DNA from: a virus
Taxonomy: Duplodnaviria > Caudoviricetes
Virus record (IMG/VR): IMGVR_UViG_3300010397_000013
Coordinates: 1-56,196 of that record
Reading direction: 5' to 3' (one strand)
DNA length: 56,196 nt
How positions within the stretch are numbered: position 1 is the first letter of the stretch; each line of letters opens with the position of its first letter. The translations under genes and the position numbers were made by a program. Below are positions 28,578-52,936 of this stretch, one piece after another. Under the pieces are notes generated by a model that was not told the origin of the DNA, did not search any database, and worked only from the letters and a program-made list of their open reading frames with translations.

Positions 28578-30425
28578 ATGAAACACAAAATCTGGTGGTT
28601 TTTAGCAGGTATCGTGTGCTTGCTATTTGCGGTAGAAGCAATTCCAGCACCAAGCCCAACCATTTACGTGCCTTGGCCAGCAGTGATTGGAACGAATGAA
28701 ATTCAGGTCAACACAAGCGCGGCTACCAGCAAGATGCGCATTGGTCCCGCAACCCCCATCAGCCAAATCGCCTCCAACGCCGCGCAGAATGTGGTGAATG
28801 CGAGTGCGGTTTGGACGAACGATGGTTCAATCACGTATCCGATTGTCCAACAAGCAGTCTATATACAGTCCGAAAAAGGGTTATGGATTGGTGACAGCAA
28901 TGCTCTCAGAAATTTGCTAGGCTCATGGACATCTTCGGGACAAACCATCTCGTCTGTCCTGAGCGGGGATAGTGGGCATCAGTATAATGGATTCACGTTT
29001 GGTTACGCCAACAGCGGAACGAATGTTTACATCCAAGCAACAAGCTCGTCAGGTGATCCGCACATGGACTTCCTGATGTACGTAAACACCAATAACGTTG
29101 GTCACAACTACGATCTGGACATAGACCTTAATCGTAGTTTGATCGGTTTAAGTTCCACCGATAGCCAGAGCCGTTTTGTTATCGCAAACGGTGATGCGTT
29201 CTCAACCGGCAATATGCTGTTGGCGACGTTGAGGGGAATCTTGAAAATGGCACTTGGAACCAATGGGTCACTCTTTATCGCGGGTACAATCACCAACACC
29301 GCCCTCTCGCCATCCAAACTCGTTGCCACCGGCACCGGCACAAACCTGACCAGCAGCGCCTATGGCGACAGCGACATTGCCGGATGGCTTGCGACCAGCA
29401 ATAGCTTCGTCAAGATTCAAAACGGCACCGCGAACGCGCTGATTGAAACCAACTCTACGTTAATCGGCGCGGTGGCTCGCCCTGCCACTGGCGCAACCAC
29501 GCCCGCATTCGCCGTGGGCAACACCAACCTGAGCAGCACCAACCTATATGTAGGCACAAATGGTAATGTGGGGATCAATACGAATGCGCCCTCAGTGCCG
29601 CTCGAAGTTACCGGACCAAGCGGCACCGCAAATATTCTTACCGTGACAAGCAATGGAAACCCCATTGTCCATATTGCACCCTACGGTATTCGTGTTCGTA
29701 CACCATCATCAAACCCAAGCATCCCTGAAATTGCCTCCATCTCAGGCACCAATACTGGAATTTCATTTAATACTTCGGCCCCAAACATAACGTTCTTAGT
29801 GAACAGCGCACAGGCAGCAATGGTTGACGCAACAGGATTTGGAGTTCTTTCTGGTGGTGCATTTACTTTTGTAAACAACTCCTCAACGATCAACGCCAAT
29901 CCTGGCACAAAGATTGTCTCGCCACGTTTAGGAAGCGTGATAGTTAGCAATGCAGTGGCTCTAACAGCTTACAGCCTCGGCGGAACCATTTGCGTGTCGA
30001 ATAACCCGATAGCAAGTGCAGGTGCCTCACAAACCAACCTTATCACTTTTACGGTTAAGGCGAACACTCTCACCAACAACGGAGACCGCATCAAAGCCCG
30101 ATGGTCTGGTCGATTTGGTGCGACCGCAAATACCAAAGACCTTTTCGTAATCTTTGGATCAGAGACAATTCTGGACACTTCGGCACAAATTGTGAACTCC
30201 GGTGCATGGACTGTCGAAGCGGAGATAATCCGAACAGGCAATACCTCTCAAGCCGCTTCTGCTGAGTTTCACGGTGCGGGTGTTACTCTTTTCACAACTG
30301 CTGCGGCAGTGGATTTAGTTCAGACCAACGGTATCGCAACTGTGCTCAAAATGATGAGCACGGCTGCTGGAGATGGAGACGTAACAAACAGGACCATGAC
30401 AGTTGAATTTTACCCTGCACCGTGA
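28578..30425 (+). CDS. Tail-fibre/adhesin-like beta-rich protein with N-terminal signal-peptide-like segment
   Basis: Asn/Thr/Ser/Gly-rich; GNVGINTNAP fibre-type motif; MKHKIWWFLAGIVCLLFAVEA N-terminus. Confidence 0.65.
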   Translation: MKHKIWWFLAGIVCLLFAVEAIPAPSPTIYVPWPAVIGTNEIQVNTSAATSKMRIGPATPISQIASNAAQNVVNASAVWTNDGSITYPIVQQAVYIQSEKGLWIGDSNALRNLLGSWTSSGQTISSVLSGDSGHQYNGFTFGYANSGTNVYIQATSSSGDPHMDFLMYVNTNNVGHNYDLDIDLNRSLIGLSSTDSQSRFVIANGDAFSTGNMLLATLRGILKMALGTNGSLFIAGTITNTALSPSKLVATGTGTNLTSSAYGDSDIAGWLATSNSFVKIQNGTANALIETNSTLIGAVARPATGATTPAFAVGNTNLSSTNLYVGTNGNVGINTNAPSVPLEVTGPSGTANILTVTSNGNPIVHIAPYGIRVRTPSSNPSIPEIASISGTNTGISFNTSAPNITFLVNSAQAAMVDATGFGVLSGGAFTFVNNSSTINANPGTKIVSPRLGSVIVSNAVALTAYSLGGTICVSNNPIASAGASQTNLITFTVKANTLTNNGDRIKARWSGRFGATANTKDLFVIFGSETILDTSAQIVNSGAWTVEAEIIRTGNTSQAASAEFHGAGVTLFTTAAAVDLVQTNGIATVLKMMSTAAGDGDVTNRTMTVEFYPAP

Positions 30426-30427
30426 GC

Positions 30428-30970
30428 TTACGGCTTCCATGTTTCAAATCTGACCACATCGCTAACGATGGTTTGGTCAACTCCAAATTGCGCCCCAAGT
30501 TCCTCTTGGCTGTAATCGCCAGTCGCATACAGTGCTCGAATTTGTTCCGCTTTCTGCATCGTCAGCTTTGCCGAGTTGCACTGTTCCCCAACATGTCTTG
30601 GGGGCTTTACAAGTCGCCCTTTTCTCATGGCGTCCATGGTATTATCCATGTGTGTGCCAAGGAAAAGATGATCCGGGTTTACACAGCGGCGGTTGTCGCA
30701 TTTGTGGAGCACAAAAAGATCGCCGACCTCTCCGTGGTGCAGGAACCAAGAAACACGATGGACGTAGAGCACTCCACCCAGGCGCCCATTCTTGCTGATT
30801 ATTGCGTATCCATTGGGGATAAGACAACCTGCCCACTCCCAACATTTTCCAAGTTCGGGAGTGTGGGGTTGAACCGCTCCATCCTTATTCGCCTTACTCC
30901 AAAAGCGGTTGAGAAACGTTTTGGAAAATCCTTGAGCTTGCAGGAACTCCTGCGTAATTTCATTTCGCAT
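30428..30970 (-). CDS. HNH homing endonuclease with C-terminal HTH
   Basis: CWEWAG, HRVSW, VLHKCDNRRCVNPDHL.LGT..DN; SQEELGAQFGVDQTIVSDV helix-turn-helix. Confidence 0.9.
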   Translation of the reverse strand: MRNEITQEFLQAQGFSKTFLNRFWSKANKDGAVQPHTPELGKCWEWAGCLIPNGYAIISKNGRLGGVLYVHRVSWFLHHGEVGDLFVLHKCDNRRCVNPDHLFLGTHMDNTMDAMRKGRLVKPPRHVGEQCNSAKLTMQKAEQIRALYATGDYSQEELGAQFGVDQTIVSDVVRFETWKP

Positions 30971-31065
30971 TCGATCAGTTTGGTTGATTGTTTGTCACGC
31001 CTTCGGTTGTTCGTTCAACGCGAAGGCACTTTTATTATGGCTCAAACTGAAGCATTTTCGCAAGC

Positions 31066-31383
31066 ATGAAAACTCTCCTTGCCCTACTCCTAACCGCGCT
31101 CTCGTGCTTCGTGGCACAGCAACCGCCTACGACGTGGAAAGCCTACTTTTGGGGCGGAAACCAATACCGCCCTGTGGCGGCAGACACCAGCTTCGCTTTC
31201 CGCACCGAGGGCAGCAAAGACGCCTTCTGTGCTTTCTTGATACTGGTCCAATTCCCAGGGCCACAGCGCAGCCGACCCCGCTTACACGGCAGCATTTCAG
31301 GCAGTGGTGGCGAACGTGATGCAATCTGGCCTAGCACTTTCTGGAGGAAGTTTTTACGACACGGGAGTGGCGATTATGCCTAA
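31066..31383 (+). CDS. Putative secreted hypothetical protein
   Basis: MKTLLALLLTALSCFVAQ signal-like N-terminus. Confidence 0.45.
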   Translation: MKTLLALLLTALSCFVAQQPPTTWKAYFWGGNQYRPVAADTSFAFRTEGSKDAFCAFLILVQFPGPQRSRPRLHGSISGSGGERDAIWPSTFWRKFLRHGSGDYA

Positions 31384-31425
31384 CACTGGAACGGCTCACT
31401 TTGACCTGAACAGCTTCATCGCCCA

Positions 31426-31773
31426 ATGACCGAGGACGAAACCAACTGCCAGCGGTTGTCGAAACTCGAAGCCGAGTTGAAGGCCGAACGTGAGTTGCGC
31501 CTTGCCTTGCGCGATCTGTTTGACGAACGTGATAAAGCCAACAAAGAAGCGATCAAAGCCGCCTTCGCGTCGGCAGAGAAAGCCAATGACAAAACCGATC
31601 AAGGCTTGAAAGAATACAAACTTGCCAGCAACGAATGGAGGGCGACGGTGAACGATCTCGTCACCCGCATCAGCGCAAAGGGTGAGGGACTGCATCAAGG
31701 TTGGGCTTTCCTTTTGGGTTTAGTCGGTCTGGCAGGAACAATCACCGCCATCGTTTTGGCGTTTAGAAAGTGA
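31426..31773 (+). CDS. Coiled-coil protein with C-terminal TM (lysis-region membrane protein)
   Basis: Coiled coil plus WAFLLGLVGLAGTITAIVLAF. Confidence 0.65.
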   Translation: MTEDETNCQRLSKLEAELKAERELRLALRDLFDERDKANKEAIKAAFASAEKANDKTDQGLKEYKLASNEWRATVNDLVTRISAKGEGLHQGWAFLLGLVGLAGTITAIVLAFRK

Positions 31774-31780
31774 GAAAATT

Positions 31781-31930
31781 ATGAGCACTATACTTTTGGC
31801 ACTCTGGGTGATCTTGTTTGGCGTCATGGCACTCTTTCCATCGCAAGTGCCGAACTGGATTGTGCCATTCACAGCCATCGCAGTTGGCCTTATCGTTCTT
31901 GTTGGTGCCTGGCGAAGTCCAAAAACTTGA
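31781..31930 (+). CDS. Small two-TM membrane protein (MSTILLALWVILFG...)
   Basis: 49-aa hydrophobic ORF read by hand. Confidence 0.55.
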   Translation: MSTILLALWVILFGVMALFPSQVPNWIVPFTAIAVGLIVLVGAWRSPKT

Positions 31931-32036
31931 TGCGTCATGGAAGAACCGCACAAGGACGTGCCGAAACGCTCCAAGGGCGACAAGGACTTTATTTCAGAGT
32001 GCCAATGGTGGGTGAGAGAAGGTAAAAAAGAACACG

Positions 32037-32321
32037 ATGAAAAGCATAAAAACGACAATCGGCGGAGCGTTGGGGACGTTAGGGACAAGCCTTAGCGGTG
32101 TTGCGAGCATCAGCGCCATGTCTCAGTTTAATGGAAGTGGCAACATCACTAAGTTTACAATGGCTTGTGTAGCGACTGGCACGCTGCTTTCATGCCTTGG
32201 GAAGTTTTTCACCGCCCTGTTTGCAGCCGACAACAGCGAAGTTCAACGACGCTTAGTCGATCACGATGCGCAGATCGCCCAAATTAAAGAGGACACAACG
32301 CATACACAAAAACCGAAATGA
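32037..32321 (+). CDS. Putative holin
   Basis: MKSIKTTIGG..., two hydrophobic segments, A.D then a charged tail. Confidence 0.55.
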   Translation: MKSIKTTIGGALGTLGTSLSGVASISAMSQFNGSGNITKFTMACVATGTLLSCLGKFFTALFAADNSEVQRRLVDHDAQIAQIKEDTTHTQKPK

Positions 32322-32545
32322 CCCCATTGCAAGTATCACCAGCGCCATCGGTGCTTACTCCATCTGTTCACCGCCTTGATGAACATGGACGCAAGGCGAC
32401 CTTCATCATCGGCCAATTCGGCGCTGTGATCCCCGCGCCAAGCTGCAACAAAACTTTCCTCAGCAACCCAAAAGCGAGTCCGCTGCCTGTCGCATGTGGG
32501 CTTGAAGTAAGCTGTGTGCCTGCCTTAAAGGTTGCTGGGGATTAG
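32318..32545 (+). CDS. Hypothetical protein
   Basis: ATGA-coupled 75-aa ORF. Confidence 0.45.
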   Translation: MTPLQVSPAPSVLTPSVHRLDEHGRKATFIIGQFGAVIPAPSCNKTFLSNPKASPLPVACGLEVSCVPALKVAGD

Positions 32546-32547
32546 AA

Positions 32548-32754
32548 ATGTTGGTCATCTCCAGAAAAGCGAATGAATCATTCACCATCGGCGACAGCAT
32601 CACTGTAACCGTCTGCAATATTCGTCTGGACCAAGGCCAACCCATTGTCCGAATTGGGATTGACGCTCCGAAAGAACTCGCTATACATCGCTCCAATGCG
32701 AAAGCTAAGTATGAAAAACCTTCTGACCCTCCTTTTACTGGCAGCCACGATTAA
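32548..32754 (+). CDS. csrA: Carbon storage regulator CsrA/RsmA homologue
   Basis: MLVISRKANESFTIGDSITVTV...VRIGIDAPKELAIHR matches the CsrA consensus. Confidence 0.9.
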   Translation: MLVISRKANESFTIGDSITVTVCNIRLDQGQPIVRIGIDAPKELAIHRSNAKAKYEKPSDPPFTGSHD

Positions 32755-33196
32755 CCTTTTGGCACAGGAACCGCCGATACCCCCACCGCCACAACCACTA
32801 TTGAACGCTGGAGGCAACGCAATTCCAGCCCCACCGATGCCAGTGCCGCCAGAGCCGGCAACACCCGGAACCGCTCATCAGTGTTGGCAGACGAACATTG
32901 TTTTCATTGACACAAACCTTTTGCTTGGCACACGCCTAAACCAAAAAGTGATGACGGCTGGTGTTGAAATCGTCCCTAAGCACTGCCCTAAAATCTGGTA
33001 CTTCGGCATCGTTAACGAAGAACGCCGTCAATGGTGTATCCACGAACATGAAGCAGCGGCATTCGAGGCCAGCCAGTTCGATCCCGGACTAACTCAGTTG
33101 TGGCGCACGAAATATTTCGTTGAGGATTTAATGGTGGTGAAACTTAAAAAACCTACACCGCGCCAATGGATCATCCCCGCACAGGTTTCTAAATGA
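32711..33196 (+). CDS. Putative secreted Pro-rich protein
   Basis: MKNLLTLLLLAATINLLAQ signal peptide. Confidence 0.6.
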   Translation: MKNLLTLLLLAATINLLAQEPPIPPPPQPLLNAGGNAIPAPPMPVPPEPATPGTAHQCWQTNIVFIDTNLLLGTRLNQKVMTAGVEIVPKHCPKIWYFGIVNEERRQWCIHEHEAAAFEASQFDPGLTQLWRTKYFVEDLMVVKLKKPTPRQWIIPAQVSK

Positions 33197-33504
33197 TCCG
33201 CGCACTGTTCATCTTCTTCACTTGTGGCGCGTTTGCACAGACGTTCGACGTAGTGCCAACTCAATGGACTTTTTCGCAGGTTGGCCAGGTGATGACCGTT
33301 CAAGCGTTGTTCCAATCTTCGGTGCCAGGCAGTTACTACTTGCTTCGTTCAACTGATTTAAGTTCATGGACAACCGTGGCTTGCCTTTCGGCCACGAACT
33401 ATGCCTTGCGCCAGATCACAACTCAATGTCCGATGGATACAACGCCGCGAAGTTATTTGCGTGTTGTGCGTGGGGGACTTACGGTAGGTTGTTGCTGCAA
33501 ATAA
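33193..33504 (+). CDS. Putative secreted small beta protein
   Basis: Signal-like N-terminus ending AFA-Q; Y.L.RSTDLSSW motif. Confidence 0.6.
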   Translation: MIRALFIFFTCGAFAQTFDVVPTQWTFSQVGQVMTVQALFQSSVPGSYYLLRSTDLSSWTTVACLSATNYALRQITTQCPMDTTPRSYLRVVRGGLTVGCCCK

Positions 33505-33536
33505 AAATGGTGAGACAGGTTTTACCCCATCTCACC
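33499..33536 (-). terminator. Intrinsic terminator closing the pentamer array
   Basis: Minus strand GGTGAGATGGG-GTAAAA-CCTGTCTCACC followed by ATTTTTATTT. Confidence 0.8.
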
Positions 33537-33744
33537 GTACCCGACCGGACCCCGCCTAACAAAACAATACCGAACCTGACATGGCCTGACCATACCCCAA
33601 TCAACCTGACCAAGGCCCACCATTTCTCGCCATACCATAGAATTCCACTCCACAGACTACCGTTCCTTACCGGCCCGAAGGCCCGTACCGCACCTCGACA
33701 GAACTTAACCCAACTCACCAATCCATACCTTTACTTACCATGCC
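33522..33744 (-). repeat. Phased 5-nt GGY-NN repeat array (candidate guide RNA)
   Basis: 12 units (33744-33685), a UUCG hairpin, then 30 in-register units (33671-33522), of which 21 start with GG and 18 with GGY. Confidence 0.85.
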
Positions 33745-33750
33745 TCTAAA

Positions 33751-34392
33751 TCAGTCTTCCAACACTTCAAATCCAACAACGTTGAAACGTCCGAATGAAG
33801 GACGGAAATCTCCAAGTCCAATCAGCTTGCCAGCCGCCGCAATCGTTGAGTTGAGAAGTTGAGGCTCAATGTATTCCGGCAGGTTGATCATCAAAATGAA
33901 CTTTGCCTTCCAACCTTCACGCATCGCTGGACGCGAACGGGTAATGGCGTTTCTCTGAATACAAACCCTTCTGCGATCCATGTAATCCCACTCTTTAACC
34001 CCAAGACTGGCGAGTGGAGTGAGTGAAATCACAGCCGCCTTAAACAAGTCCGCTGCCGACTTACGCGGGGACCGAGGGTCTTGTTGGAACTTGGCGGCAC
34101 CAACAATCGCACCTCGCAGATATTCACCGGGAATTGCCAACTCGCCTTCATCTGTTCGATAGACGTAGCTTTCAACGTCATCAGATTTTTTCTCTGCACT
34201 TCCTTTCTTGGCCTTCGATTTCGACTCAACCGATTCGCAGTTCCACCGATGGAACAAGATTGGAGCCGTGCCTTCAATTGTGATTTCACACCGATAAGGC
34301 ATCATCATTTCAATGCCATTTGCTGCACCGTTACTTGGAGACTCACCACCTATTGCGCCAACGATTCTATTTTTCTCTAATGTTTTTGCCAT
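33751..34392 (-). CDS. Stand-alone Cas7/RAMP-like RNA-binding protein
   Basis: RAMP-type layout: N-terminal strand EITIEGTAPILFH, LAIPGEYLRGAI (cf. IPGSSLKGA), C-terminal Gly-rich loop GKLIGLGDFRPSFGRFNV. Confidence 0.75.
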   Translation of the reverse strand: MAKTLEKNRIVGAIGGESPSNGAANGIEMMMPYRCEITIEGTAPILFHRWNCESVESKSKAKKGSAEKKSDDVESYVYRTDEGELAIPGEYLRGAIVGAAKFQQDPRSPRKSAADLFKAAVISLTPLASLGVKEWDYMDRRRVCIQRNAITRSRPAMREGWKAKFILMINLPEYIEPQLLNSTIAAAGKLIGLGDFRPSFGRFNVVGFEVLED

Positions 34393-34395
34393 AAC

Positions 34396-34450
34396 TGACC
34401 ACGCCCATCCAGACCGAAGCCGATCACGCCTAACAGGATCACGCCGAAGC
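34396..34450 (-). repeat. Short 5-nt-phased array in the 5' UTR of the Cas7-like gene
   Basis: gcttc ggcgt gatcc tgtta ggcgt gatcg gcttc ggtct ggatg ggcgt ggtca, directly before gttATG. Confidence 0.6.
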
Positions 34451-34578
34451 CCATGGGAATTTTAAGAGCACCAGACCGCCAAAAGTTGTAGCGCCTCGCT
34501 TGGGAAGCGAAGCCAATTGACGACTGGTGCAAATTGTTTTGGTTTGCATAACGGGCTACAATCCGTTTAACAGTTGCA

Positions 34579-34607
34579 ATTTCAGCAGAATACCGGTAAT
34601 AAGTCAA
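34579..34607 (-). promoter_or_regulatory. Putative promoter of the Cas7-like operon
   Basis: TTGACT-17 nt-TGAAAT with an extended TG. Confidence 0.5.
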
Positions 34608-34624
34608 TAATAAACTTTGGAAAT

Positions 34625-34813
34625 ATGAAAATAACCCTGCTCCTTCCACTCCTCTGTCTCTGCTGCACCTCTTGCAGCACAACGAACATCTCGAAGCTCG
34701 CCGAGCAGTTAAAGAACGACCCCGCGACAGTGGACCTCAACGTAACGACTATCTGGGGTTCGTTTCAATTCCATCGCTCGTTCCCAACGAATTGGGTGCC
34801 GCCGAAGAAGTAG
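34625..34813 (+). CDS. Small lipoprotein
   Basis: MKITLLLPLLCLCCTSC lipobox-like signal. Confidence 0.6.
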   Translation: MKITLLLPLLCLCCTSCSTTNISKLAEQLKNDPATVDLNVTTIWGSFQFHRSFPTNWVPPKK

Positions 34814-34814
34814 G

Positions 34815-35380
34815 GCACAGGATGCATTTTTGCGGAGCGTTAACCACTGACTATCATCTTACTCCCCGAATGAGGAGAGATCGAACCGTGATCCGATCTC
34901 ATTCGCCCGTCACGGCGAACAGCCTGTATTAAATTGGTGGCTGCTCGTTGCTTTACCCCGGTTTTTCTCCGGGCAAGCAGCCATTAAAATTGATGCGGCA
35001 TCGAACCCTTGTTCGTTCTCAGCTTGGCTAACCCGCCATGCCGCGTGGCGTTCTCGTTTCGCGCATTTGGCTCGCACTTACCTTACCTTCATGGAGCGCG
35101 TGGAATCAGGTCCACTCTGCTTTGATCCACTACTGCATTGAGCCATTGGTAATTTATTCACAGCCAGCGCCATGTCATATCACAATGAAACCGGGCTGCG
35201 CATTTCTGCGCTCTGTTAATTTCAATCCGCACCCTGCAACTCAATGCGGGGTGACATCTTTATCGCTCTCTGGCGCTGGCTGAAATTTGGTGGCTCCCCC
35301 CGCTTTTCACGAGAATCCCGCGAACAGCCAGCCTAGGACTCTCGTTCGCAGTCATCGGAATTGCACCGATAGTAGCCATA
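34815..35380 (-). ncRNA. Cluster of structured RNA modules, two ending in ACCA
   Basis: No convincing ORF; multiple stems separated by AT-rich linkers. Confidence 0.55.
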
Positions 35381-35386
35381 AATGGA

Positions 35387-35929
35387 TTACGGCTTCGGGG
35401 TCGGAGTGCCAGCAACCAAACCAAGGTTCGCCGCATTGGCTCCAATCACACTGAGGCGGACTACATCGCTGATTTCCTCAACGCCCTCTCCGAGGTCGGC
35501 ATCGGCCTTGACCATGACTTCCGTATCACCCGGATCATCGCTGCTGATCAGGTCAGCGGACAGGCCGTCATCGGCAACCTTCACTTGGCTGCTTCCACTG
35601 ATGACTGTCCATGAAGGTGAGCCATCCAGTTTGGCAGGTTTGCCGGTAGCGGTGACGGGTTTCAACGTAACGTTTACTTGCTGCTCATTTGTTATTCGAA
35701 TTTCCAGGGGCATTTTTATCTCTTTCTCTTTTGGTTTTGGCTGCCCGACAGACCAACCGAATCGAACAGTCCGTGTTTTTGTCTCACTACATCCAAACAA
35801 CCGGCAAAGCCAGTTTTGGAAATTTGTCTTTTTCACAACGTGCTCAATCTCGGCGATTGATGCATCAACTTCAATCACAACTTTAGGCATAGCAACACTC
35901 ACTCTACCTGCTCGCGCCCTTCTCGGCAA
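35387..35929 (-). CDS. Ig-like domain protein (possible internal start at 35713, MPLEIRITN...)
   Basis: Beta-strand-rich C-terminal 108 aa; purine-rich tract before the internal ATG. Confidence 0.6.
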   Translation of the reverse strand: MPRRARAGRVSVAMPKVVIEVDASIAEIEHVVKKTNFQNWLCRLFGCSETKTRTVRFGWSVGQPKPKEKEIKMPLEIRITNEQQVNVTLKPVTATGKPAKLDGSPSWTVISGSSQVKVADDGLSADLISSDDPGDTEVMVKADADLGEGVEEISDVVRLSVIGANAANLGLVAGTPTPKP

Positions 35930-36134
35930 CGGTGGGGATCTCCTCCTGAATCCTCGTGTTCCACGCCTTGATCGCCTCGCGTCGTGTCGCGAATGTCAAC
36001 ATGGATTGATAGCCTTGGCAGTGCTCAGTATTGCAACCGGCAGATTTGCGCACATCACCAAGCAACTCCGATTCTTCAATTTGAACATCGTTACTGCCGC
36101 AGAATGGACATGGAAGTAATGTTTCTTCGCTCAT
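35904..36134 (-). CDS. Lar-family (restriction alleviation-like) Zn-ribbon protein
   Basis: LLPCPFCGS...C...C...EAIKAWNTR. Confidence 0.75.
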   Translation of the reverse strand: MSEETLLPCPFCGSNDVQIEESELLGDVRKSAGCNTEHCQGYQSMLTFATRREAIKAWNTRIQEEIPTVAEKGASR

Positions 36135-36503
36135 TTTGGCATTGGTTTATGAATGTCTCGTCTTGGTCCCCGCCATTGATACAGTCCCATCGGTGAACTA
36201 ATCCAACCGCCTTCAGCATTGTCGCCGCCCAATGGAATCCACCACATCCCTCCCCCGCGTGCCTACTCTCCCTATCATGCTTAGATTGAACTGCCATGAT
36301 AAGTTCGTTGTATTTGGAATTCGTTTCACCATTTTTTAATCCCTCCAAAACTTCAATCGCTAGAATTAAATTTTCACGCGCAATCTGCGCATCATCATAG
36401 CGACGTTTCCTTAATTTTGTGGATATGCTTTTGTGGTATTTGTCTGTTGCGCTAACGATCAAACACAGTTCATACTTTCGCAAAAGCTGAAGCATTAGCA
36501 CAC

Positions 36504-36692
36504 TCATATTTGAAAATCAATCTGCGGTTCTCTTTTTTTGAAAAATGTTTCTTCAACGGACTCACCTTCGATCAGGCGATGGATATAACAAAACAGGATA
36601 GCCATCAGCAACCCACGTGGGAGTTTTACATTCCATTCAGCAATCTCCCGCTTCGCCACATCAAAGGCGTGCTTGCGTGTTAGAGTTTTCAT
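36504..36692 (-). CDS. Hypothetical protein
   Basis: 62-aa ORF in a packed minus-strand operon. Confidence 0.5.
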   Translation of the reverse strand: MKTLTRKHAFDVAKREIAEWNVKLPRGLLMAILFCYIHRLIEGESVEETFFKKREPQIDFQI

Positions 36693-36864
36693 TCTGGATC
36701 TTCAAACAGGCATTATCCGCGTATTGATGGCCAAACTCCATTCGCACCATCTCAAGAGCTTCCCTGGCGCTGTGCGCAGTGATTTCAACGACACATTCTG
36801 CGCCACGATTTACACAGTAAACTTTGCCTTTGATCAACGGGTTAAGTTTGACGCGGGAGATCAT
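36661..36864 (-). CDS. Hypothetical protein
   Basis: ATGA-coupled ORF. Confidence 0.5.
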   Translation of the reverse strand: MISRVKLNPLIKGKVYCVNRGAECVVEITAHSAREALEMVRMEFGHQYADNACLKIQNENSNTQARL

Positions 36865-37053
36865 GGCAACACTGGTTCAACTCGCACCTCAACCTGAATC
36901 GCGTCGGGCTGTTCATCAGTGTAAGTGCAATGATTCAGCGCCTCTCCCTTGGACATACAAAGCTTTCCTGTAATCTGCCCATTGGGATAAAGATTCATCC
37001 AGAACGTACGCTTGAAAGCTGGATGCTTTTGAATTGTTGCATTCATGCCGGGA

Positions 37054-37275
37054 TCACCGTCTCTTTCCAGATGCCGCCTTTCGACTTGGCAATTCTCTGA
37101 CTTCAACTTTAACGATTTTACAGTAGCGCGTAGTGACTCTTGCCTGCACCATCTCTTTTGCCTTAACCATAGAGTCAAACAAGGCAGGACCGCCCGGCTT
37201 AATGTTAAGCAGGAGGTAAGGCGTATGAAACTTTGGGCTTCCAATCCGAATAGCAAAGTAAGTTTCTTTAATCAT
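37054..37275 (-). CDS. Hypothetical protein
   Basis: Start overlaps the end of the RusA-like gene. Confidence 0.5.
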   Translation of the reverse strand: MIKETYFAIRIGSPKFHTPYLLLNIKPGGPALFDSMVKAKEMVQARVTTRYCKIVKVEVRELPSRKAASGKRR

Positions 37276-37666
37276 GTATCACCTCAATCTTGATTACCGT
37301 TCCCTCCTGCTCGCGCTCCAGCACCTTCACTTGGCTGACTTCAAGCGCAATGTCTTGCGCTCTGTCGTTCGGGATGATTTGCGCGTAGCGGCAGCAATCG
37401 ACAAAATATTTTGGGCAAAGATTGTCTGGATCGATGAGCCTCCGTCGATAAGAGATAATGCTGACCCGAAGGCGCTTTGCGTTGCCTGCTTCTCCTTTTT
37501 GCGTTGCCAAGGATTCATCGCAAAAAGGGCGTTCAGACTCGGAACGGGATGCTTCACAAACAGAGCGATGTCCTTCATTTATTCTTTCAACATTTCTCGC
37601 CAGCGTGCTCTTGCTGGCACCAGGAAAACGGCGTCGAAGTTCGTCTGGAGTGATCTGATTACTCAT
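37268..37666 (-). CDS. RusA-like Holliday junction resolvase
   Basis: RRRLIDPDNL..KY.VD......IPND pattern. Confidence 0.7.
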   Translation of the reverse strand: MSNQITPDELRRRFPGASKSTLARNVERINEGHRSVCEASRSESERPFCDESLATQKGEAGNAKRLRVSIISYRRRLIDPDNLCPKYFVDCCRYAQIIPNDRAQDIALEVSQVKVLEREQEGTVIKIEVIHD

Positions 37667-38097
37667 TTAATTAACTTCTGCTTTGCCGCATCTGCTTTTA
37701 CCTTCTCTGCTTTAGCTGCCTCTCGTTCCGCCTTTGCATCTTCTCTGGCTAGACAACGAATCGTCTCAATTTTCTCATTATTGTAAACAGCGTCTTCTTT
37801 TTCTTTTTGAGTTGGCCCCGAACCCAATGGTGTTCCTTCAAGAAGTATCTCCACAAAAAACGCAGTGAATGTCTTCGCATAGTCCCGATCACTCCAAGTG
37901 AGAGGATTGAGGACTTTTCGCGAAAGTTTTATCGCCGCATTTTCAATCTCTGTGCGAGATGATGACGCTGGGATCGGATCTGTAAACCGAACCTTGGCCG
38001 GATCTTTAGCCACCACAACACAGAGTTCATTATCACGAAGAATCTTGATGTCCTCTGCGCTCATGGAGTTTTCCGGCAGAATAATAATTGGCTTCAT
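37663..38097 (-). CDS. Hypothetical protein
   Basis: 144-aa ORF, first gene of the minus-strand operon. Confidence 0.65.
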   Translation of the reverse strand: MKPIIILPENSMSAEDIKILRDNELCVVVAKDPAKVRFTDPIPASSSRTEIENAAIKLSRKVLNPLTWSDRDYAKTFTAFFVEILLEGTPLGSGPTQKEKEDAVYNNEKIETIRCLAREDAKAEREAAKAEKVKADAAKQKLIK

Positions 38098-38269
38098 TTA
38101 ATTTTCAGCGTGAACGAAAATGGTTTGTTTCAATCCGCGCCCCATAATTACAGGGCGATAACTCACGCGAGCGAGAATGCCGAAATCCAAACTCCCTGTC
38201 AACAAATATTTTTACTTTCGTCAATTATTTTTCTTGACCCTACCCAGAATGAATGATTTGCTTGCATCT

Positions 38270-38440
38270 ATGACCGTAAGAGAAGAAGCGCGACAGTCTG
38301 AAAAGCAGAACCTTGCAAGGCTGCTTAAGATTCACGGTGGCAACATTGCAGCCGTCTCAAAAGAAATGGGATACACCCGAACTGCCATTATCTGGAAGCT
38401 TCGCAAGTACGGCCTTTACAAACCCCTGAGGCGAGCATGA
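38270..38440 (+). CDS. Fis-type helix-turn-helix protein
   Basis: EKQ.L..LL..HGGNIAAVSKEMGYTRTAIIWKLRKYGL. Confidence 0.8.
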   Translation: MTVREEARQSEKQNLARLLKIHGGNIAAVSKEMGYTRTAIIWKLRKYGLYKPLRRA

Positions 38441-38793
38441 CCCAACCCCAACTCAACGCACTGAACCTTTTCTGCGCAGAGAAGGTGATGGGGTGGCATC
38501 GCACCACTGGCTTTCTTGGCGAAAGCCGCTTTGGAATCACTTCTGATGGAGAAATTCTGATGCGCGGCACCGCCAACACTTCACCTATCTGGTCCCCCAC
38601 AACCGATCCCGCACAGGCCATGCTGGTGTTTGAGAAGTGTGCCCTGAAATTAGATTGTAATTTCAGAATTGAATATTGGTTATCTGGCAAATACCACTGC
38701 CTTAAATCTGATGAGCCTAATTGCATGATAATCAGCGCCGAAACACTCCCTCTTTGCATCGTCAAATTCGCTGAGAAGATTTTTAATAAATGA
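38437..38793 (+). CDS. Phage protein (AEKVMGW / WSPTTD family)
   Basis: AEKVMGW, WSPTTD..QA..V and AET.PL.I motifs. Confidence 0.65.
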   Translation: MTQPQLNALNLFCAEKVMGWHRTTGFLGESRFGITSDGEILMRGTANTSPIWSPTTDPAQAMLVFEKCALKLDCNFRIEYWLSGKYHCLKSDEPNCMIISAETLPLCIVKFAEKIFNK

Positions 38794-39191
38794 AAACTAA
38801 CAATGTTATGACTCCACGACGCAAACAGATCCGCTACATCACTGAATCCGAAATCATCGACGTTATCGACAGGGCACAAAAAGAAGCAGGCCGATGTTTG
38901 GTTGGCGCAATCGAGAATGATCGGATTGCCGACGCCCATTACAGATCCATCCCGGAATTGAAATCCAAACTGGCCAAGGCAACATTAAAGCGTGAACAGG
39001 ATGATTTAAGGCGCAAAATCCACGATGCGGGAAAGGCAGCAGAACATGCCCGCGAGCAAGCAAAAAAACTCTCTCGCCGCCGTCACACACTGGAAGATGC
39101 CACTATCCCAAGGCTTGGAGTTGCTCTGGCAGAAATGCGAACCATGATCATGCAACCGATCACAACCGACCCCGGAGTTGTGCTGCACTGA
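38790..39191 (+). CDS. Coiled-coil hypothetical protein
   Basis: ATGA-coupled 133-aa ORF. Confidence 0.6.
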   Translation: MKTNNVMTPRRKQIRYITESEIIDVIDRAQKEAGRCLVGAIENDRIADAHYRSIPELKSKLAKATLKREQDDLRRKIHDAGKAAEHAREQAKKLSRRRHTLEDATIPRLGVALAEMRTMIMQPITTDPGVVLH

Positions 39192-39587
39192 AATGAAAAC
39201 CTTCCACGCCAAAGATTTTAGCAGTCCACTGGCCCTTTTTGGTTCACCAGCATTTTGGAACGTTGAATTACCTTGCGAAATAGACACTGGCGGCGGCTCC
39301 ACATTTACTATGACCAAAGATAACATTGAAGCTGTTTGCCTTGGCTGCACCATGGCGTCAAGCTGGCCGAAGAAAGAAACAAATGACACCTGACGAAGCA
39401 ATTACCAACTTGGAGCAGATGCAGAAGCAAATCATCCACGGCTCAAATGTTTTTGGTGAAACAGCGCAAATAATCAAAGAGGCCAAAGACTTGATCCAAC
39501 ATTTTGGATGGACCAGCTGCGAGCGCAGTGACGTAGTCACCAACGCGGAGAGATGGCTTCAGGGAAAGCGCCCGTTAAATACATGAT

Positions 39588-39734
39588 ATGACTGACACTG
39601 AATTGTTAGACAAAGCAAACCACATGACCACCCTCAATCACATCGGGAGTGCGCCTGAACCGATTCACATCCTAAACTTAGGAGCCGGTGTACAATCCAG
39701 CCACTCGCCACTTTCGGTAGAGTGGGGGTGTTAG
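39588..39734 (+). pseudogene. Possible truncated remnant of a PAPS-reductase-like / adenine nucleotide alpha-hydrolase gene
   Basis: 48-aa ORF containing HILNLGAGVQSS, then an early stop. Confidence 0.4.
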
Positions 39735-40043
39735 AGCCAGAATAAATTGAGTATCGTATGCGCAAGCTTTCATCGAAACTTCCGATGTGCTGCCTCCCGT
39801 GGGTGACGCAACAGGTTCCTCGCCTGTCTCGATTTCCCTTGGCCGGGTTAGGCAGCACATCAGAGGATTCGGTATGCTTCATAAGCTAATCACGGTCACG
39901 GATCAAACCGCCTTCCACTGGTATCCACTATTCCCATTTTGGGTCTATCCATTGCGTTGCCCTTGGGGACATGGGCCTGTATCGCAGGCTGACTTTTTAG
40001 CCCACGAACCACGCGAAGGGATTTGGTTTGGGAGGAATTGAAC

Positions 40044-40589
40044 ATGAACGATCTTCAGTTCAAGGTCATCCCCACGCTCTATAACGGCATTGAGTTTCGT
40101 TCCAGGCTCGAAGCGCGTTGGGCGTTGTTCATGGATCTAATCGGGGTGAAGTGGGCCTACGAACCTGAAGGCTACCAAATTGGCGGTGACAAATACCTGC
40201 CCGACTTCTTTCTCTACCGCCAGAATTGCTTTTACGAAATCAAACCCGCGTGGCCAACCAATCAAGAGGCCAAAAAGTGTGAATCCCTTGCAATGGCAAC
40301 TGGCCGCAAAGTCTTCCTTCAGCATGGACCGCTTCTTGTTCCAACTGGTGATGTTAATGAAGGGGCACTTGCGTACTGGCGATGTGATGATGGAATGCCG
40401 GGGAGTGACATAACCTACCTTTGGGCTGAATGCAAAAAATGCGGCTATTGCGAACTGCAATTTGAGGGACGATCCGCCAGGAACTCTTGCCGCCATTACG
40501 GGCCAGAATCCAACAAGGAATATAACGAAGATTCCCCTAAGTTGGTTCGAGCCTACCACCTCGCAGATTCAGAAAGATTCGGAACATGA
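40044..40589 (+). CDS. PD-(D/E)XK-type nuclease-like protein
   Basis: FRSRLEARWA, YEPEG, YLPDF, YEIK. Confidence 0.75.
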   Translation: MNDLQFKVIPTLYNGIEFRSRLEARWALFMDLIGVKWAYEPEGYQIGGDKYLPDFFLYRQNCFYEIKPAWPTNQEAKKCESLAMATGRKVFLQHGPLLVPTGDVNEGALAYWRCDDGMPGSDITYLWAECKKCGYCELQFEGRSARNSCRHYGPESNKEYNEDSPKLVRAYHLADSERFGT

Positions 40590-42532
40590 CAATTCAAGAA
40601 GCCCTACTTCAACAAAACCTCTCTTATGACGGCATAATTCACGAGGACGGCAAGCTTCACAGGTTCGGCACCAAAGACGACAAGCCGGAGGTGCCATGCT
40701 GGTACGTCTTTCACGCCCTGCCAAACCAAGTTATCGCCGGAGCGTTTGGCTGTTGGAAGCGGCAGGTTAAACAGCGATTCTGTTCGCGGGAACGCTCGTC
40801 CATGCCCGCCAGTGAATGGGCGGAAGTGTGCAAAGCTCAAAAGCAGGCTGAGGATCTTCGCCGAATCGAAGAAGAACAGAACCACTCCAGGGTGCGCGCC
40901 GAATGCAAAATCATTTTCTCAGGTTCTAATCACCCCAAATTGCTCGCCCACCCCTACCTGAAGAAGAAGGGCGTCAACGCTTACGGTAATCTGCGCCTAT
41001 CAACCAGCAACTTGACCCCCGGCTGGCTCGCGCTTCCCTTGATCGATACTGATGGGGTAATTCACAGCGCCGAATTCATCGCTGATGATGGCACCAAGCG
41101 AATGTTCTACCAAGGGCGTTGCCAAGGATGCTGGTTCCCGCTGGCGGACGCCCCGGATGGGCCAATCTGCATCGTGGAAGGCTATGCCACCGGCGCAAGT
41201 GTCCATCAAGCCACAGGTTGGGCCACAGTCTGCGCTCGCAATGCCGGAAACCTGATCCCAGTCGCGCAATCCATCCGTAAGCTTCATCCAAACCGAGCCA
41301 TCATCATCGCCGCCGATAATGACCAGTTTACAGAGGGCAATCCCGGCATAACCAAGGCCACTGCCGCCGCAAAACCAATTTCCGGCACTGTCGTTTACCC
41401 GCAATTCTCGGACGAATCGCTCGAACACAAGCCCACAGATTGGAATGACTTACATCAATTGACCGGATTGGCAGAGGTGAAGCGTCAGATCGTTGAAGGA
41501 GCCAAGCTTGGCGGTGATTGGGATTTGTTGCTGGAGGATGCCGCCGATACCATGACCGAAATCATCCCTGAACCGATTCAAATCGTGGAGGGATTGCTGT
41601 GTGTGGAGGCGAAATTGGTCATTGGCGGGTCATCCAAGACCTACAAAACGTGGATCACGATGGATATGGCGATTTCATTAGCTACCGGAGCCAATTTCCT
41701 TGGCCGGAAGTGCAAACAACAGCGCGTTCTCTATGTTAATTTCGAGTTAAAGAAGAACACCTTCAAAACTCGCCTGCAAACTATCGCCAAAGCCAAGGGT
41801 GTTCACTTCGATTATCGCCAAATGGTTCATCTTTCCCTCCGTGGGCTTATCTCCCGACTTACCCCCAAGCAAATCGTGGACAAAATCGTTACCATGGCCG
41901 CCACCCGCAAGGTTGGGGTGGTAGTAGTTGACCCCATTTACAAGCTGAACACCCAGGGGAAGGACGAGAATTCAGCCGGGGAACAAACTATCCTGCTCAA
42001 TGAACTCGATAGAATCACCACCGAAGCCAAATGCTCCCTGATTTTCGATGATCATTTCTCAAAAGGCTCGCAATCTGACAAAGACCCACTAGATGCTATC
42101 CGAGGCAGTAGCGCCAAGGGCGGTGACGTGGATGCCGCTTTGATTATCCGCAAACACAAGATAGAAGGATCATTTTCTGTCGATGTAGTTCACCGGGAAT
42201 TGCCGCCCGTGAACCCATTCGTCATCACTTGGCAATATCCTCTATTCCATCCCAATGAGGATTTGGATGCTGCCGACATGAAACAACCCAAAAGGGGCGG
42301 CAGACCACCCACTACTGACCCAATGGAAATACTGGAGGCTTTTAGGGATACAACCCCCCTCAATGGAACCACGATTTCAGAGTTAAGCAGGAAGGTTGGC
42401 ATTGCCCGTCAAACAATCCAAAACCATCTATCCTTCCTCCGATCCAAATCATGGATAGCAACTTCCGGTGAGGGAGCACGAGCCACCCAACACATCACCC
42501 AGGAAGGACTTACTCGCCTTCAAAATATATGA
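40586..42532 (+). CDS. Primase-helicase (Toprim + RepA/AAA_25 helicase + C-terminal HTH)
   Basis: IVEGYATG, AADND, TDWND; Walker A GSSKTYKT, VVVDP; C-terminal TISELSRKVGIARQTIQNHL. Confidence 0.9.
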   Translation: MTIQEALLQQNLSYDGIIHEDGKLHRFGTKDDKPEVPCWYVFHALPNQVIAGAFGCWKRQVKQRFCSRERSSMPASEWAEVCKAQKQAEDLRRIEEEQNHSRVRAECKIIFSGSNHPKLLAHPYLKKKGVNAYGNLRLSTSNLTPGWLALPLIDTDGVIHSAEFIADDGTKRMFYQGRCQGCWFPLADAPDGPICIVEGYATGASVHQATGWATVCARNAGNLIPVAQSIRKLHPNRAIIIAADNDQFTEGNPGITKATAAAKPISGTVVYPQFSDESLEHKPTDWNDLHQLTGLAEVKRQIVEGAKLGGDWDLLLEDAADTMTEIIPEPIQIVEGLLCVEAKLVIGGSSKTYKTWITMDMAISLATGANFLGRKCKQQRVLYVNFELKKNTFKTRLQTIAKAKGVHFDYRQMVHLSLRGLISRLTPKQIVDKIVTMAATRKVGVVVVDPIYKLNTQGKDENSAGEQTILLNELDRITTEAKCSLIFDDHFSKGSQSDKDPLDAIRGSSAKGGDVDAALIIRKHKIEGSFSVDVVHRELPPVNPFVITWQYPLFHPNEDLDAADMKQPKRGGRPPTTDPMEILEAFRDTTPLNGTTISELSRKVGIARQTIQNHLSFLRSKSWIATSGEGARATQHITQEGLTRLQNI

Positions 42533-51967: not shown

Positions 51968-52936
51968 ATGACAATGACAATCAAGAAGGCATCACGAACA
52001 GGTGTAAAACCGCTGATCGGATTCTACTCTGAAAGCGGATGCGGCAAAACAATGTCGGGCCTTTTGCTCGCTCGCGGCTTAGTTGGGCCATCTGGCAAAA
52101 TCGTAATGATCGACACCGAGAGCGGGCGCGGGAGTCTCTATGCTGACGTGATTGAAGGAGGTTATGATGTGCTCGAATTGCGCGAGCCGTTTAGCCCAGA
52201 ACGATACATTGAAGCAATCAAGGCCGTCGAAGACTCTGGGGCGCAAGTTGGAGTGCTTGATTCAGGATCTCACGAGTGGGAAGGACTTGGGGGGGTCATC
52301 GACATGGCTACACAGCGCGAGGCCAAGAGCGGTAAGCCCGGACTGCACAACTGGCGCGAGCCGAAGATTGAACACCAGAAGTTCATGCTTAAGCTTTTGC
52401 AATCGCCGTTGCCGTGGATCATTTGCCTTCGGGCCAAGTTCAAGACGCGCCAAGGCAAGAATGCCCAAGGCCGAACGGAGATTGTTAAAGACGAGCATAC
52501 TTCCCCAATTCAGGCGGAAGATTTCATCTTTGAGATGACGTGCCACGGCGAGGTCATGCCGGATCACACGTTCAGGCTGACGAAATGCAGCCATCCAGCC
52601 TTGAGGCAGGCCATGCCTAATAATGAGCTGACCACCATCGAACACGGCAAGAGGCTGTCTCAATGGTGCGCTTCGCCCGGTGGCCCTGGCCCGCAAGCGA
52701 ACGGCAACGGCAAAAGTGAATTGCTTTCCAAACTCCGGGACATGACTGTCTCAATTCACGGCTGGCAAAAGGGAATGAAGCCTGCGGAATGGCAGGCGCT
52801 AAAGCCGAAATTGGGTCAGTGGCTTTGGGATGAGGGGATTCTATCGGACACTGAATCGCTCGACAATTTGGACTCAGGGAGATTGTTCGAGGTCTGCGAT
52901 AATGCGGAGAAGAAACTTTCCGTTACTGCTACATGA
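51968..52936 (+). CDS. Sak4-like AAA ATPase / recombinase
   Basis: Walker A SESGCGKT, IDTE, VLDSGSHEW. Confidence 0.8.
   Translation: MTMTIKKASRTGVKPLIGFYSESGCGKTMSGLLLARGLVGPSGKIVMIDTESGRGSLYADVIEGGYDVLELREPFSPERYIEAIKAVEDSGAQVGVLDSGSHEWEGLGGVIDMATQREAKSGKPGLHNWREPKIEHQKFMLKLLQSPLPWIICLRAKFKTRQGKNAQGRTEIVKDEHTSPIQAEDFIFEMTCHGEVMPDHTFRLTKCSHPALRQAMPNNELTTIEHGKRLSQWCASPGGPGPQANGNGKSELLSKLRDMTVSIHGWQKGMKPAEWQALKPKLGQWLWDEGILSDTESLDNLDSGRLFEVCDNAEKKLSVTAT

Follow-up and report, generated by a model that had tools for sequence, protein, structure and literature searches.

A phage VIPR locus carrying a guide that matches CBASS oligonucleotide-cyclase genes

A minus-strand locus in a 56-kb phage genome that has terminal repeats (IMG/VR record IMGVR_UViG_3300010397_000013; the whole stretch analysed, hereafter the window, comprises 56,196 nucleotides) pairs a single gene with a run of G-rich pentamers, and raises the question of whether a phage can encode an RNA-guided system built on a Cas7-like protein and, if so, at what its guides are directed. 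A preliminary description, made from the sequence alone, had proposed that the gene encodes a stand-alone Cas7/RAMP-like protein, that each subunit binds a constant GGY and displays two variable bases, and that the system resembles the recently described VIPR (Viral Interference Programmable Repeat) systems. VIPR is in print in three 2026 bioRxiv preprints (10.64898/2026.04.26.720920, 10.64898/2026.04.26.720927 and 10.64898/2026.10.15.759431), and each of the tests suggested in that description that could be performed on sequence and predicted structure gave a positive result.

The gene, which we designate vipr, is an ORF of 213 aa at 33751..34392 (-), and GG first appears 7-8 nt after its stop codon. 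While the preliminary description had treated the downstream repeats as one phased array of 223 nt, the array is not in one register but consists of two parts. Unit 1 (33747..33683, minus strand) contains 13 pentamers, in which position 4 is G in 13 of 13 and position 5 is G in 8 and T in 5, whereas unit 2 (33669..33520, minus strand) contains 30 pentamers, of which 20 end in GG. Over all 43 pentamers, position 1 is never G (T 30, A 7, C 6), positions 2-3 are mixed, position 4 is G in 36 and position 5 is G in 31. None of 20000 mononucleotide shuffles of either unit reached the observed in-phase GG count. When both strands of the window were scanned in 200-nt windows, the eight strongest period-5 GG signals all lay on this array, with a top power of 2.31 against a 99th percentile of 0.36 and a median of 0.04, making this by far the strongest 5-nt GG periodicity in the window, and three other weakly periodic places proved not to be arrays.

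The two units are separated by a 12-nt hairpin, GGCC-UUCG-GGCC, at 33672..33683 (-), which shifts the pentamer phase. The same kind of hairpin stands at the matching places in 8 of 9 close-relative loci (numbered here with the prefix L; none was present in L005), with stems that vary in a compensatory way (GGCC/GGCC, GGGC/GCCC, GGCU/AGCC, GGACUC/GAGUCC) and loops of GAAA, GCAA, UUCG, UUUU or UGUU. This element is described only from these ten sequences, as a generic pattern search for small hairpins was too noisy to be used as evidence (156 hits against 111 on the opposite strand). An intrinsic terminator at 33499..33536 (-), with an 11-pair stem at 33536..33509 containing 6 G-C pairs followed by AUUUUUAUUU, closes the locus, and the last pentamers of unit 2 overlap its stem.

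Support for the elements upstream of vipr was more uneven. The short upstream array of the preliminary description amounts to only 4 consecutive NNNGG units (TTCGG, TCTGG, ATGGG and CGTGG) at 34418..34399 (-), ending 6 nt before the start codon; relatives carry longer upstream arrays at the same place (for example L004), and 44 of 81 homologous loci have an upstream array, but the function of this copy is uncertain. A structured leader RNA at 34468..34530 (-), in which an outer helix (GCACCAG/CUGGUGC) encloses a hairpin with a UUCCC-type loop, was not significant when folded alone (z -1.4). However, RNAalifold on the window and 8 close relatives gave 21 pairs, 14 of them with compensatory changes, and covariation thus supports the element, although L007 lacks it. 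No Rfam family matched it, and a search of 33000..35000 returned three matches with E > 1, far below their gathering scores. The candidate promoter at 34579..34607 (-) (TTGACT, 17 nt, TGAAAT) was not reported by a consensus scan and is inferred only; its TTGACT at 34607..34602 aligns with TTGAC upstream in the relatives L002, L004 and L005. One transcript probably runs from a promoter near 34600 to the terminator at 33509, carrying the leader, the vipr gene and the 3' array.

We then asked whether the protein belongs with the Vipr proteins. Pfam found no family, PHROGs gave only an unnamed family (phrog_4652), and megablast of 30000..40000 against named phages found no match. In contrast, the only PDB sequence match was the SUSP1 Vipr protein (36pp_D), with an E of 1.1e-6 for the single sequence and 1.1e-17 for a 65-sequence profile over positions 32-206, nearly full length, and BLASTP to the SUSP1 gene product gave 26% identity over 184 columns (E 1e-11). 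The AlphaFold model (pLDDT 93.3, pTM 0.85) has a predicted RRM/RAMP fold, and its best Foldseek hits in the PDB copy searched were Csm3/Cas7 chains (6ifl_F, E 5.8e-7, TM about 0.5; 145 chains at E <= 0.001), the backbone RAMPs of class 1 CRISPR systems (Csm3/Cas7 of type III-A, Cas7 of type VII, gRAMP/Cas7-11). The glycine-rich loop GLGDFRPSFGRF aligns with GVGDWRPRFGRF of SUSP1, while the thumb is assigned by inference, the beta-hairpin at 137-157 carrying R154, which corresponds to SUSP1 thumb residue R138.

The cryo-EM preprint (10.64898/2026.04.26.720927) reports for SUSP1 that each subunit binds the constant GGY and displays NN, as the preliminary description had guessed, and the residues involved, together with those that hold the DNA strands, are conserved here: SUSP1 H17, R138, D177, W178, R179, E71, K33, R39 and K82 correspond to H48, R154, D195, F196 (aromatic kept), R197, E90, K63, K69 and K101, although M72, C173 and T175 are not conserved (Y91, I191, L193). 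Among 65 diverse relatives, R154, D195 and R197 are at least 90% conserved and P155 and G201 are invariant. Adjacent same-strand pentamer arrays were found in 74 of 81 homologous loci, with 192 counted runs near the gene, 21 elsewhere on the same strand and 2 on the opposite strand.

The closest named relative, a 60%-identical protein of phage DSL-LC04 (OR003939.1), is annotated as a 'helix-turn-helix transcriptional regulator', and it could be envisaged that the gene encodes an ordinary transcription factor and that the G-rich repeats are an oddity of the 3' UTR or terminator region. However, this is contradicted by the absence of an HTH or any other Pfam family, by the predicted fold, by the homology to a solved Vipr protein and by the arrays that travel with the gene on the same strand, and we consider it very unlikely. 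Only the fold is shared with the class 1 CRISPR effectors: sequence identity to them is 12-16%, the step along the RNA is 5 nt rather than 6 nt, the guide is non-contiguous, no CRISPR-like direct repeats and no tandem repeats other than one 12-mer occur in the window, and no cas family appeared among the about 45 window ORFs scanned by Pfam or PHROGs, a scan that was not exhaustive.

As in the SUSP1 and Pseudomonas fulva prophage ('type II') VIPR systems, the locus is phage-encoded and its YNNGG arrays lie in the intergenic DNA flanking vipr on the same strand. In contrast to those systems, it has long uninterrupted runs of 13 and 30 units instead of separate ~100-nt vrRNAs of 9-16 units, each with a pseudoknot tail; no such tail was found here, although none was sought, and the structured elements are instead the short tetraloop hairpin and the covarying 5' leader, two RNA features specific to its sub-clade. 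The preprint states that array architectures differ between types. The scaffold is also looser, position 1 being A in 7 of 43 units and 15 of 43 units not ending in GG. Furthermore, there is no accessory vap gene: no ORF lies between the vipr stop codon and the terminator, and the neighbours are on the other strand. None of the close relatives L001-L009 and L012 appeared among the loci with a downstream ORF, though that search is confounded by long open frames across G-rich arrays, and its clear cases, AAA_24 ATPases in sister clades, are probably just the next phage gene. A vap gene is typical but not universal, as some Vipr genes are reported to stand alone (10.64898/2026.04.26.720920), and since the main text of that preprint names six vap families for seven types, a vap-less type would fit this locus, although this is our inference.

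By homology with the solved SUSP1 system, one Vipr protomer binds each pentamer, burying the G-G-pyrimidine scaffold and displaying the two variable bases, and the filament then pairs with double-stranded DNA, reading two bases and skipping one, and blocks transcription. This published rule offered an opportunity to search for targets. Six 18-base seeds built in this manner were scanned against IMG/VR and gave 2, 4, 5, 1, 0 and 0 hits. The hits of the two unit 1 seeds (2 and 4) extended only at chance level, the seed over units 10-18 of unit 2, which with hindsight straddles a guide boundary, gave 1 chance hit, and the seeds over units 13-21 and 19-27 gave 0. Full patterns of unit 1 and of the later part of unit 2, with up to 3 mismatches, gave 0 hits in five genomes. 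Thus no target was found for unit 1 or for the remaining 18 pentamers of unit 2 (33520..33609, minus strand; one or two further guides, as guide boundaries inside unit 2 are inferred only from where the target match and the homology to relatives end), and only one of at least three guides has a target. Self-targets in the window and in all of the loci collected were at the level of shuffled controls.

Only the 5 hits of the third seed extended beyond it, and all lay at the same site of one gene family, the CBASS oligonucleotide cyclase (CD-NTase), which was identified by PADLOC ('Cyclase', E 1e-99 to 1e-146) and by Pfam SMODS and DncV-like NTase in 4 of 4 tested. The genes sit beside SAVED-HNH or patatin effectors and E2 genes. 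The guide comprises twelve pentamers at 33669..33610 (-), with a perfect core in the last 10 (33659..33610), and when read with one skipped base per unit it matches the antisense of the K-P-I-S-I-I-I-T-T-L coding site. The skipped bases fall on codon wobble positions, as the preprints report for natural targets, so that one guide covers widely diverged cyclase genes. The guide of the window scores 21/24 informative bases in 7 of 8 cyclase loci, mismatching at its first two units, while the same guide in the relatives L001, L003 and L135 scores 23/24 and in L012 21/24; 200 permuted guides for each version reached at most 19. L001 and L003 carry GC GC where the window has AA AC, and GC GC matches the next two Ala codons of the target.

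It remains possible, although we regard it as unlikely, that the match to cyclase genes is fortuitous or non-functional and that the true targets of all guides are elements absent from the collections searched. One 18-base seed is expected to find roughly one chance hit in this collection, the five viral-collection hits are homologous genes and count as one event rather than five, the pattern is somewhat low in complexity (AT AT AT, GT GT), and, besides its two 5' mismatches, the guide in the window contains several scaffold units that are not GG (TAGTC, AATTC, CGAGA, TGGGC). However, the match extends to 20-22 fixed bases in the window and in relatives and is specific to the one-base skip. 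When 4979 ten-unit guide windows from 117 sources were scanned against the five target loci at a threshold of 18 of 20, skipping 1 base gave 71 hits, while skipping 0, 2 or 3 bases gave 1, 0 and 0, and shuffled and reversed guides gave 0 and 0. The guide is also kept in five diverged loci, including L012, whose Vipr protein is 70% identical and which holds the guide at a different array position. The variability of NN against scaffold positions among these five guide versions is partly circular, and an analysis of the most NN-conserved window of the cyclase is circular, as the sequences were chosen by matching the pattern or the target; neither is used as evidence. In an independent collection, exact 20/20 matches occurred in 3 of 401 Planctomycetota genomes, all at the same cyclase site, and in a sample chosen without the pattern 3 of 151 genomes held this cyclase family, of which 2 had the perfect site.

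We read the locus as a complete, stand-alone VIPR system that the phage uses to shut down a CBASS operon, either in the host chromosome or on a resident mobile element. This is inferred from a sequence match, for a phage whose host is unknown and an array not shown to be transcribed, processed or bound, and we consider it only somewhat more likely than not. A Lar-like restriction-alleviation gene lies 1.5 kb upstream on the same strand. On the other hand, CBASS proteins are probably present in general before infection and the phage has no integrase or resolvase hit, so that transcriptional silencing after entry may come too late to protect a lytic infection.

A less likely alternative is that the guide serves conflict between mobile elements in the already published way, being aimed at CBASS operons of rival prophages or satellites, to cripple a competitor or its superinfection exclusion, rather than at host immunity as such. 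All five targets in the viral collection lie on contigs classed as viral, next to WYL regulators and type I methyltransferases, as in mobile defence islands, and the preprints report satellites, prophage regulators and other VIPR systems as natural targets. Moreover SUSP1, which like this phage appears to be virulent, needs VIPR against an element that becomes active after infection. In contrast, the same perfect site also occurs on large contigs of bacterial genome assemblies (the 3 of 401 genomes above), with one cyclase of the unbiased sample on a contig of at least 1.5 Mb, though that copy is the imperfect one. In practice the two readings overlap, as in both the thing silenced is a CBASS cyclase.

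The more far-reaching possibility, which we put forward only tentatively, is that a virulent phage carries a protein-plus-RNA silencer aimed at a host immune gene rather than at another virus, its guide reading only the first two bases of ten to twelve consecutive codons of the most constrained peptide of CBASS cyclases (KPISIIITTL[AA]). One 60-nt RNA could in that case switch off a whole clade of CBASS operons across phyla, whatever their synonymous drift, and, being antisense to the cyclase mRNA, the guide could also bind the transcript. The tetraloop-punctuated multi-guide arrays and covarying leader of the sub-clade would then be a distinct way of making several guides from one mRNA 3' end. 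This would be the first RNA-guided, sequence-programmed anti-CBASS counter-defence and a new use for VIPR; the main texts of the preprints do not mention this target class. The phage anti-CBASS proteins Acb1 and Acb2 appear rather to degrade or sequester the cyclic nucleotide signal after it is made, and the phage-borne CRISPR-Cas of ICP1, directed at the PLE defence island, probably cuts DNA using acquired spacers, whereas transcriptional silencing of the cyclase gene is proposed here.

VIPR has so far been tied to fights between phages, satellites and prophages. The present locus is a clean, minimal example, with one gene and probably one transcript in a complete and otherwise almost unannotatable phage genome, and it belongs to a very large environmental clade (5648 homologues at E <= 0.001 in a word-indexed search; 1567 cluster representatives). 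Its value lies in the predicted target. If a phage VIPR silences CBASS, RNA-guided systems would be used by viruses against bacterial immunity itself, the wobble-skipping code would be a device for hitting conserved protein motifs across diverged genes, and guide catalogues of environmental VIPR arrays could be read as maps of which defences phages most need to disarm.

An ORF of 213 aa was located on the minus strand, running from 34392 to 33751, and GG was found to appear 7-8 nt after its stop codon and to recur every five bases thereafter. The array is in two registers. The first (unit 1, 33747..33683) comprises 13 pentamers, in which position 4 is G in all 13 while position 5 is G in 8 and T in 5. 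It is followed by a 12-nt hairpin, GGCC-UUCG-GGCC (33683..33672), which shifts the phase, and then by a second unit of 30 pentamers (unit 2, 33669..33520), 20 of them ending in GG, which runs into an intrinsic terminator at 33536..33509. Over all 43 pentamers, position 1 is never G (T 30, A 7, C 6), positions 2 and 3 are mixed, position 4 is G in 36 and position 5 is G in 31. None of 20000 shuffles of either unit reached the observed in-phase GG count. When both strands of the whole window were scanned for period-5 GG signals, the eight strongest all lay on this array, with a top power of 2.31 against a 99th percentile of 0.36, while three weaker places proved not to be arrays. As expected where two of every five bases vary, the array was not detected by Tandem Repeats Finder.

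Upstream of the gene the evidence is weaker. The short upstream array of the preliminary description amounts to only four consecutive NNNGG units (34418..34399), and the promoter it proposed was not found by a consensus scan, although a TTGACT at 34607..34602 lines up with TTGAC in relatives. Between the structured leader and these four pentamers (34420..34455, minus strand), the 9-mer GGCGTGATC occurs twice, 20 nt apart, and may represent a decayed array, an operator or chance. A small ORF on the plus strand (34625..34810), with no Pfam family, diverges from the vipr promoter region, and its N-terminus looks like a lipoprotein signal (MKITLLLPLLCLCCTSCS). The window itself is a complete virus record of 56196 bases with direct terminal repeats (123 bp, exact), and the phage is almost unannotatable. 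Of about 30 ORFs of 130 aa or more that were scanned, only three gave a match, namely a primase-helicase (40586..42532), an AAA_24 ATPase (51968..52936) and a PDDEXK-like DUF3799 protein (53819..54739), while the 1501-aa ORF at 1317..5822 and the other large ORFs matched no Pfam or PHROG family. No tRNA genes were found.

The 213-aa product has no Pfam family and falls in an unnamed PHROGs family. A sequence search of the Protein Data Bank, however, returned exactly one protein, the 'SUSP1 Vipr protein' (36pp_D), with an E of 1.1e-6 for the single sequence and of 1.1e-17, over nearly the whole length, for a profile of 65 diverse relatives. BLASTP against the SUSP1 gene product gave 26% identity and an E of 1e-11. 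The AlphaFold model is confident (pLDDT 93.3, pTM 0.85), and its best Foldseek matches, in a PDB copy that ends before the VIPR entries, are all Csm3/Cas7 chains of type III-A, type VII and gRAMP complexes (E about 1e-6, TM about 0.5, with 145 chains at E <= 0.001). The SUSP1 residues reported by cryo-EM to hold the scaffold bases and the DNA (bioRxiv 10.64898/2026.04.26.720927) correspond in the pairwise alignment as H17 to H48, R138 to R154, D177 to D195, W178 to F196, R179 to R197, E71 to E90, K33 to K63, R39 to K69 and K82 to K101. Among the 65 relatives, R154, D195 and R197 are at least 90% conserved, and P155 and G201 are invariant.

The preliminary description named VIPR-type systems, which exist in print. 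VIPR systems are described in bioRxiv 10.64898/2026.04.26.720920, with a structural companion (10.64898/2026.04.26.720927) and a later preprint (10.64898/2026.10.15.759431). These report a small RAMP protein and vrRNAs of 9-16 YNNGG units with a 3' tail, in which one protomer binds each unit and the target is read as two bases followed by one skipped base, usually the codon wobble position, resulting in transcriptional silencing. The systems are mostly on phages and proviruses, fall into seven types and have six vap accessory families.

The family is large, with 5648 proteins at E <= 0.001 among 5859 candidates in a word-indexed collection, the best 120 of which are 76-92% identical, and 1567 representatives of 50% clusters at E <= 0.001. 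One of these representatives (P0124) is 336 aa long and matches the query in three stretches, and may be a duplicated or fused Vipr. We retrieved 80 loci from IMG/VR, the named phage DSL-LC04 and 35 loci from species-representative genomes, the latter mostly Planctomycetota assemblies and at most 64% identical. In 74 of the 81 viral and phage loci, at least one NNNGG run scoring 6 or more was present on the same strand within 1500 nt downstream or 600 nt upstream of the gene, with 30 having a downstream run only, 23 upstream only and 21 both. The counted runs were 192 near the gene, 21 elsewhere on the same strand and 2 on the opposite strand. Some relatives (loci L032, L033, L034 and L038) carry very long arrays, with runs of 57-90 pentamers and several runs per locus, more than 1 kb in all, interrupted by a conserved non-repeat segment of about 85 nt, which differs from the tetraloop punctuation of the window's sub-clade. 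The 60%-identical homologue in DSL-LC04 (OR003939.1, 3965..4582), which has three pentamer runs upstream of it (3673..3925), is annotated in GenBank as a 'helix-turn-helix transcriptional regulator'. The fold does not support this annotation, and together with the homology it indicates a mis-annotation.

The close relatives (70-86% identity) share two RNA features with the window. The first is the punctuation hairpin, a small hairpin set between two GG motifs that cuts their arrays, of which there is 1 in the window, 2 in L001, 3 in L002, 2 in L003, 2 in L004, 0 in L005, 1 in each of L006, L007 and L008, and 2 in L012 (L numbers denote retrieved loci). The stems vary in a compensatory way (GGCC/GGCC, GGGC/GCCC, GGCU/AGCC, GGACUC/GAGUCC) and the loops are GAAA, GCAA, UUCG, UUUU or UGUU. 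The second is the structured leader, which holds an outer helix (GCACY.../...RGUGC) around a hairpin. RNAalifold on nine sequences predicted 21 pairs, 14 of them with compensatory changes, while L007 lacks the element. None of the relatives L001-L009 and L012 has an ORF of 90 aa or more starting right after vipr, and in the window nothing lies between the stop codon and the terminator. The sub-clade is therefore a stand-alone vipr with a multi-guide 3' array. In contrast, in the sister clade found mostly in Proteobacteria (L101-L105, L040, L046, L050, L069 and L075), the gene starting right after vipr is an AAA_24 ATPase (E 4e-39 to 5e-48), which may be an accessory gene or simply the next replication-module gene, whereas the window has its own AAA_24 gene far from vipr.

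Targets were sought using the published conversion, in which each scaffold becomes one wildcard. No self-target was found in the phage, or in any of the loci collected, beyond the level of shuffled controls. Six 18-base seeds were then scanned against IMG/VR. The two unit 1 seeds gave 2 and 4 hits, none of which extended beyond the seed, and three of the seeds from unit 2 gave 1 chance hit, 0 and 0. In contrast, the seed from units 3-11 of unit 2 gave 5 hits, all of which lie at the same place of one gene family, with four of the five extending to a tenth unit. The hit gene is a CBASS oligonucleotide cyclase. PADLOC calls it 'Cyclase' with E from 1e-99 to 1e-146, and Pfam finds SMODS and DncV-like nucleotidyltransferase in 4 of 4 tested, one also with an AGS_C domain. 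Its neighbours are SAVED-HNH or patatin effectors, E2 proteins, a WYL regulator and type I methyltransferases. The guide equals the antisense strand, and on the coding strand the paired bases are the first two of the codons for K-P-I-S-I-I-I-T-T-L, while the skipped bases are the wobble positions.

To assess whether this match was specific to the code, 4979 ten-unit windows from the arrays of 117 sources were scanned against the five target loci with a threshold of 18 of 20 bases. A skip of 1 gave 71 hits, while skips of 0, 2 and 3 gave 1, 0 and 0 hits respectively, and shuffled unit order and reversed guides each gave 0. The 71 hits come from the window, L001, L003 and L012, plus one chance-level hit shared by the loci L076 and L077. 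For the twelve-unit guide, the window scored 21/24 on 7 of 8 cyclase loci and 19/24 on the eighth, L001, L003 and a further guide-bearing locus, L135, scored 23/24 on 7 of 8 loci (22/24 or 21/24 on the eighth), and L012 scored 21/24 on 7 of 8 (20/24 on the eighth), whereas 200 permutations per guide reached at most 19. L001 and L003 have GC GC where the window has AA AC, and GC GC matches the two Ala codons that follow in the target. After the twelfth unit the window and its relatives are unrelated, which puts a guide boundary there and gives a guide length within the published 9-16 units. A scan for the guide itself found five distinct versions in all.

The site was then sought in an independent collection. 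One of three genomes carrying Vipr homologues, a Frigoriglobus assembly, was found to hold an exact 20/20 site. The same assembly holds two Vipr loci (L106 and L107, 64% identical to the window's protein) as well as the CBASS cyclase with the perfect site (L131/L140), although the arrays of L106 and L107 did not show the cyclase guide in the scan of ten-unit windows. Among 401 Planctomycetota genomes, 3 hold the site, all three matches being exact and lying in the same cyclase motif, while the backwards pattern gave one hit at up to one mismatch. In a sample of 151 genomes searched with the cyclase family rather than the pattern, 3 have such a cyclase, of which two carry the perfect site and the third has 15 of 20.

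Membership of the locus in VIPR is as firm as sequence analysis can make it, and the cyclase match is, in our judgement, real, being long, specific to the code, wobble-aligned, repeated in an independent collection and retained in five diverged loci. That it serves to silence CBASS, however, is inference, and several things speak against it. The host of the phage is unknown, no integrase or resolvase was found, so that the phage is probably lytic, and CBASS proteins are likely in most cases to pre-exist infection. In addition, the window's guide has two mismatched units at its 5' end and several non-GG scaffolds, and the five viral-collection targets may sit on rival prophages. This last point leads to the main alternative, the published role of VIPR in conflict between mobile elements, with a CBASS operon as the thing hit. 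SUSP1 gives a precedent, as it needs VIPR during lytic infection against an element that acts after infection (10.64898/2026.10.15.759431). As the guide is antisense to the cyclase mRNA, and VIPR is reported to pair with RNA, though assembling incompletely on it (10.64898/2026.04.26.720927), binding of the transcript is a possible extra. A 75-aa Lar-like restriction-alleviation protein (Pfam PF14354, E 6.6e-9; phrog_599, E 3.1e-11) is encoded at 35904..36131 on the minus strand, 1.5 kb upstream of vipr, so that a second likely counter-defence gene sits close by, which fits a counter-defence neighbourhood but proves nothing.

A full-text literature search for the full name of the system together with 'CBASS' found no paper, and neither 'CBASS' nor 'cyclase' occurs in the main texts of 10.64898/2026.04.26.720920 and 10.64898/2026.10.15.759431, although their supplementary target tables may list such targets. 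The preliminary description of a phased pentamer array beside a Cas7/RAMP-like gene is confirmed, and its interpretation as a VIPR-type system is supported. While systems of this kind have already been described, if only very recently, the present locus carries a specific and testable new hypothesis about what such systems are used for.
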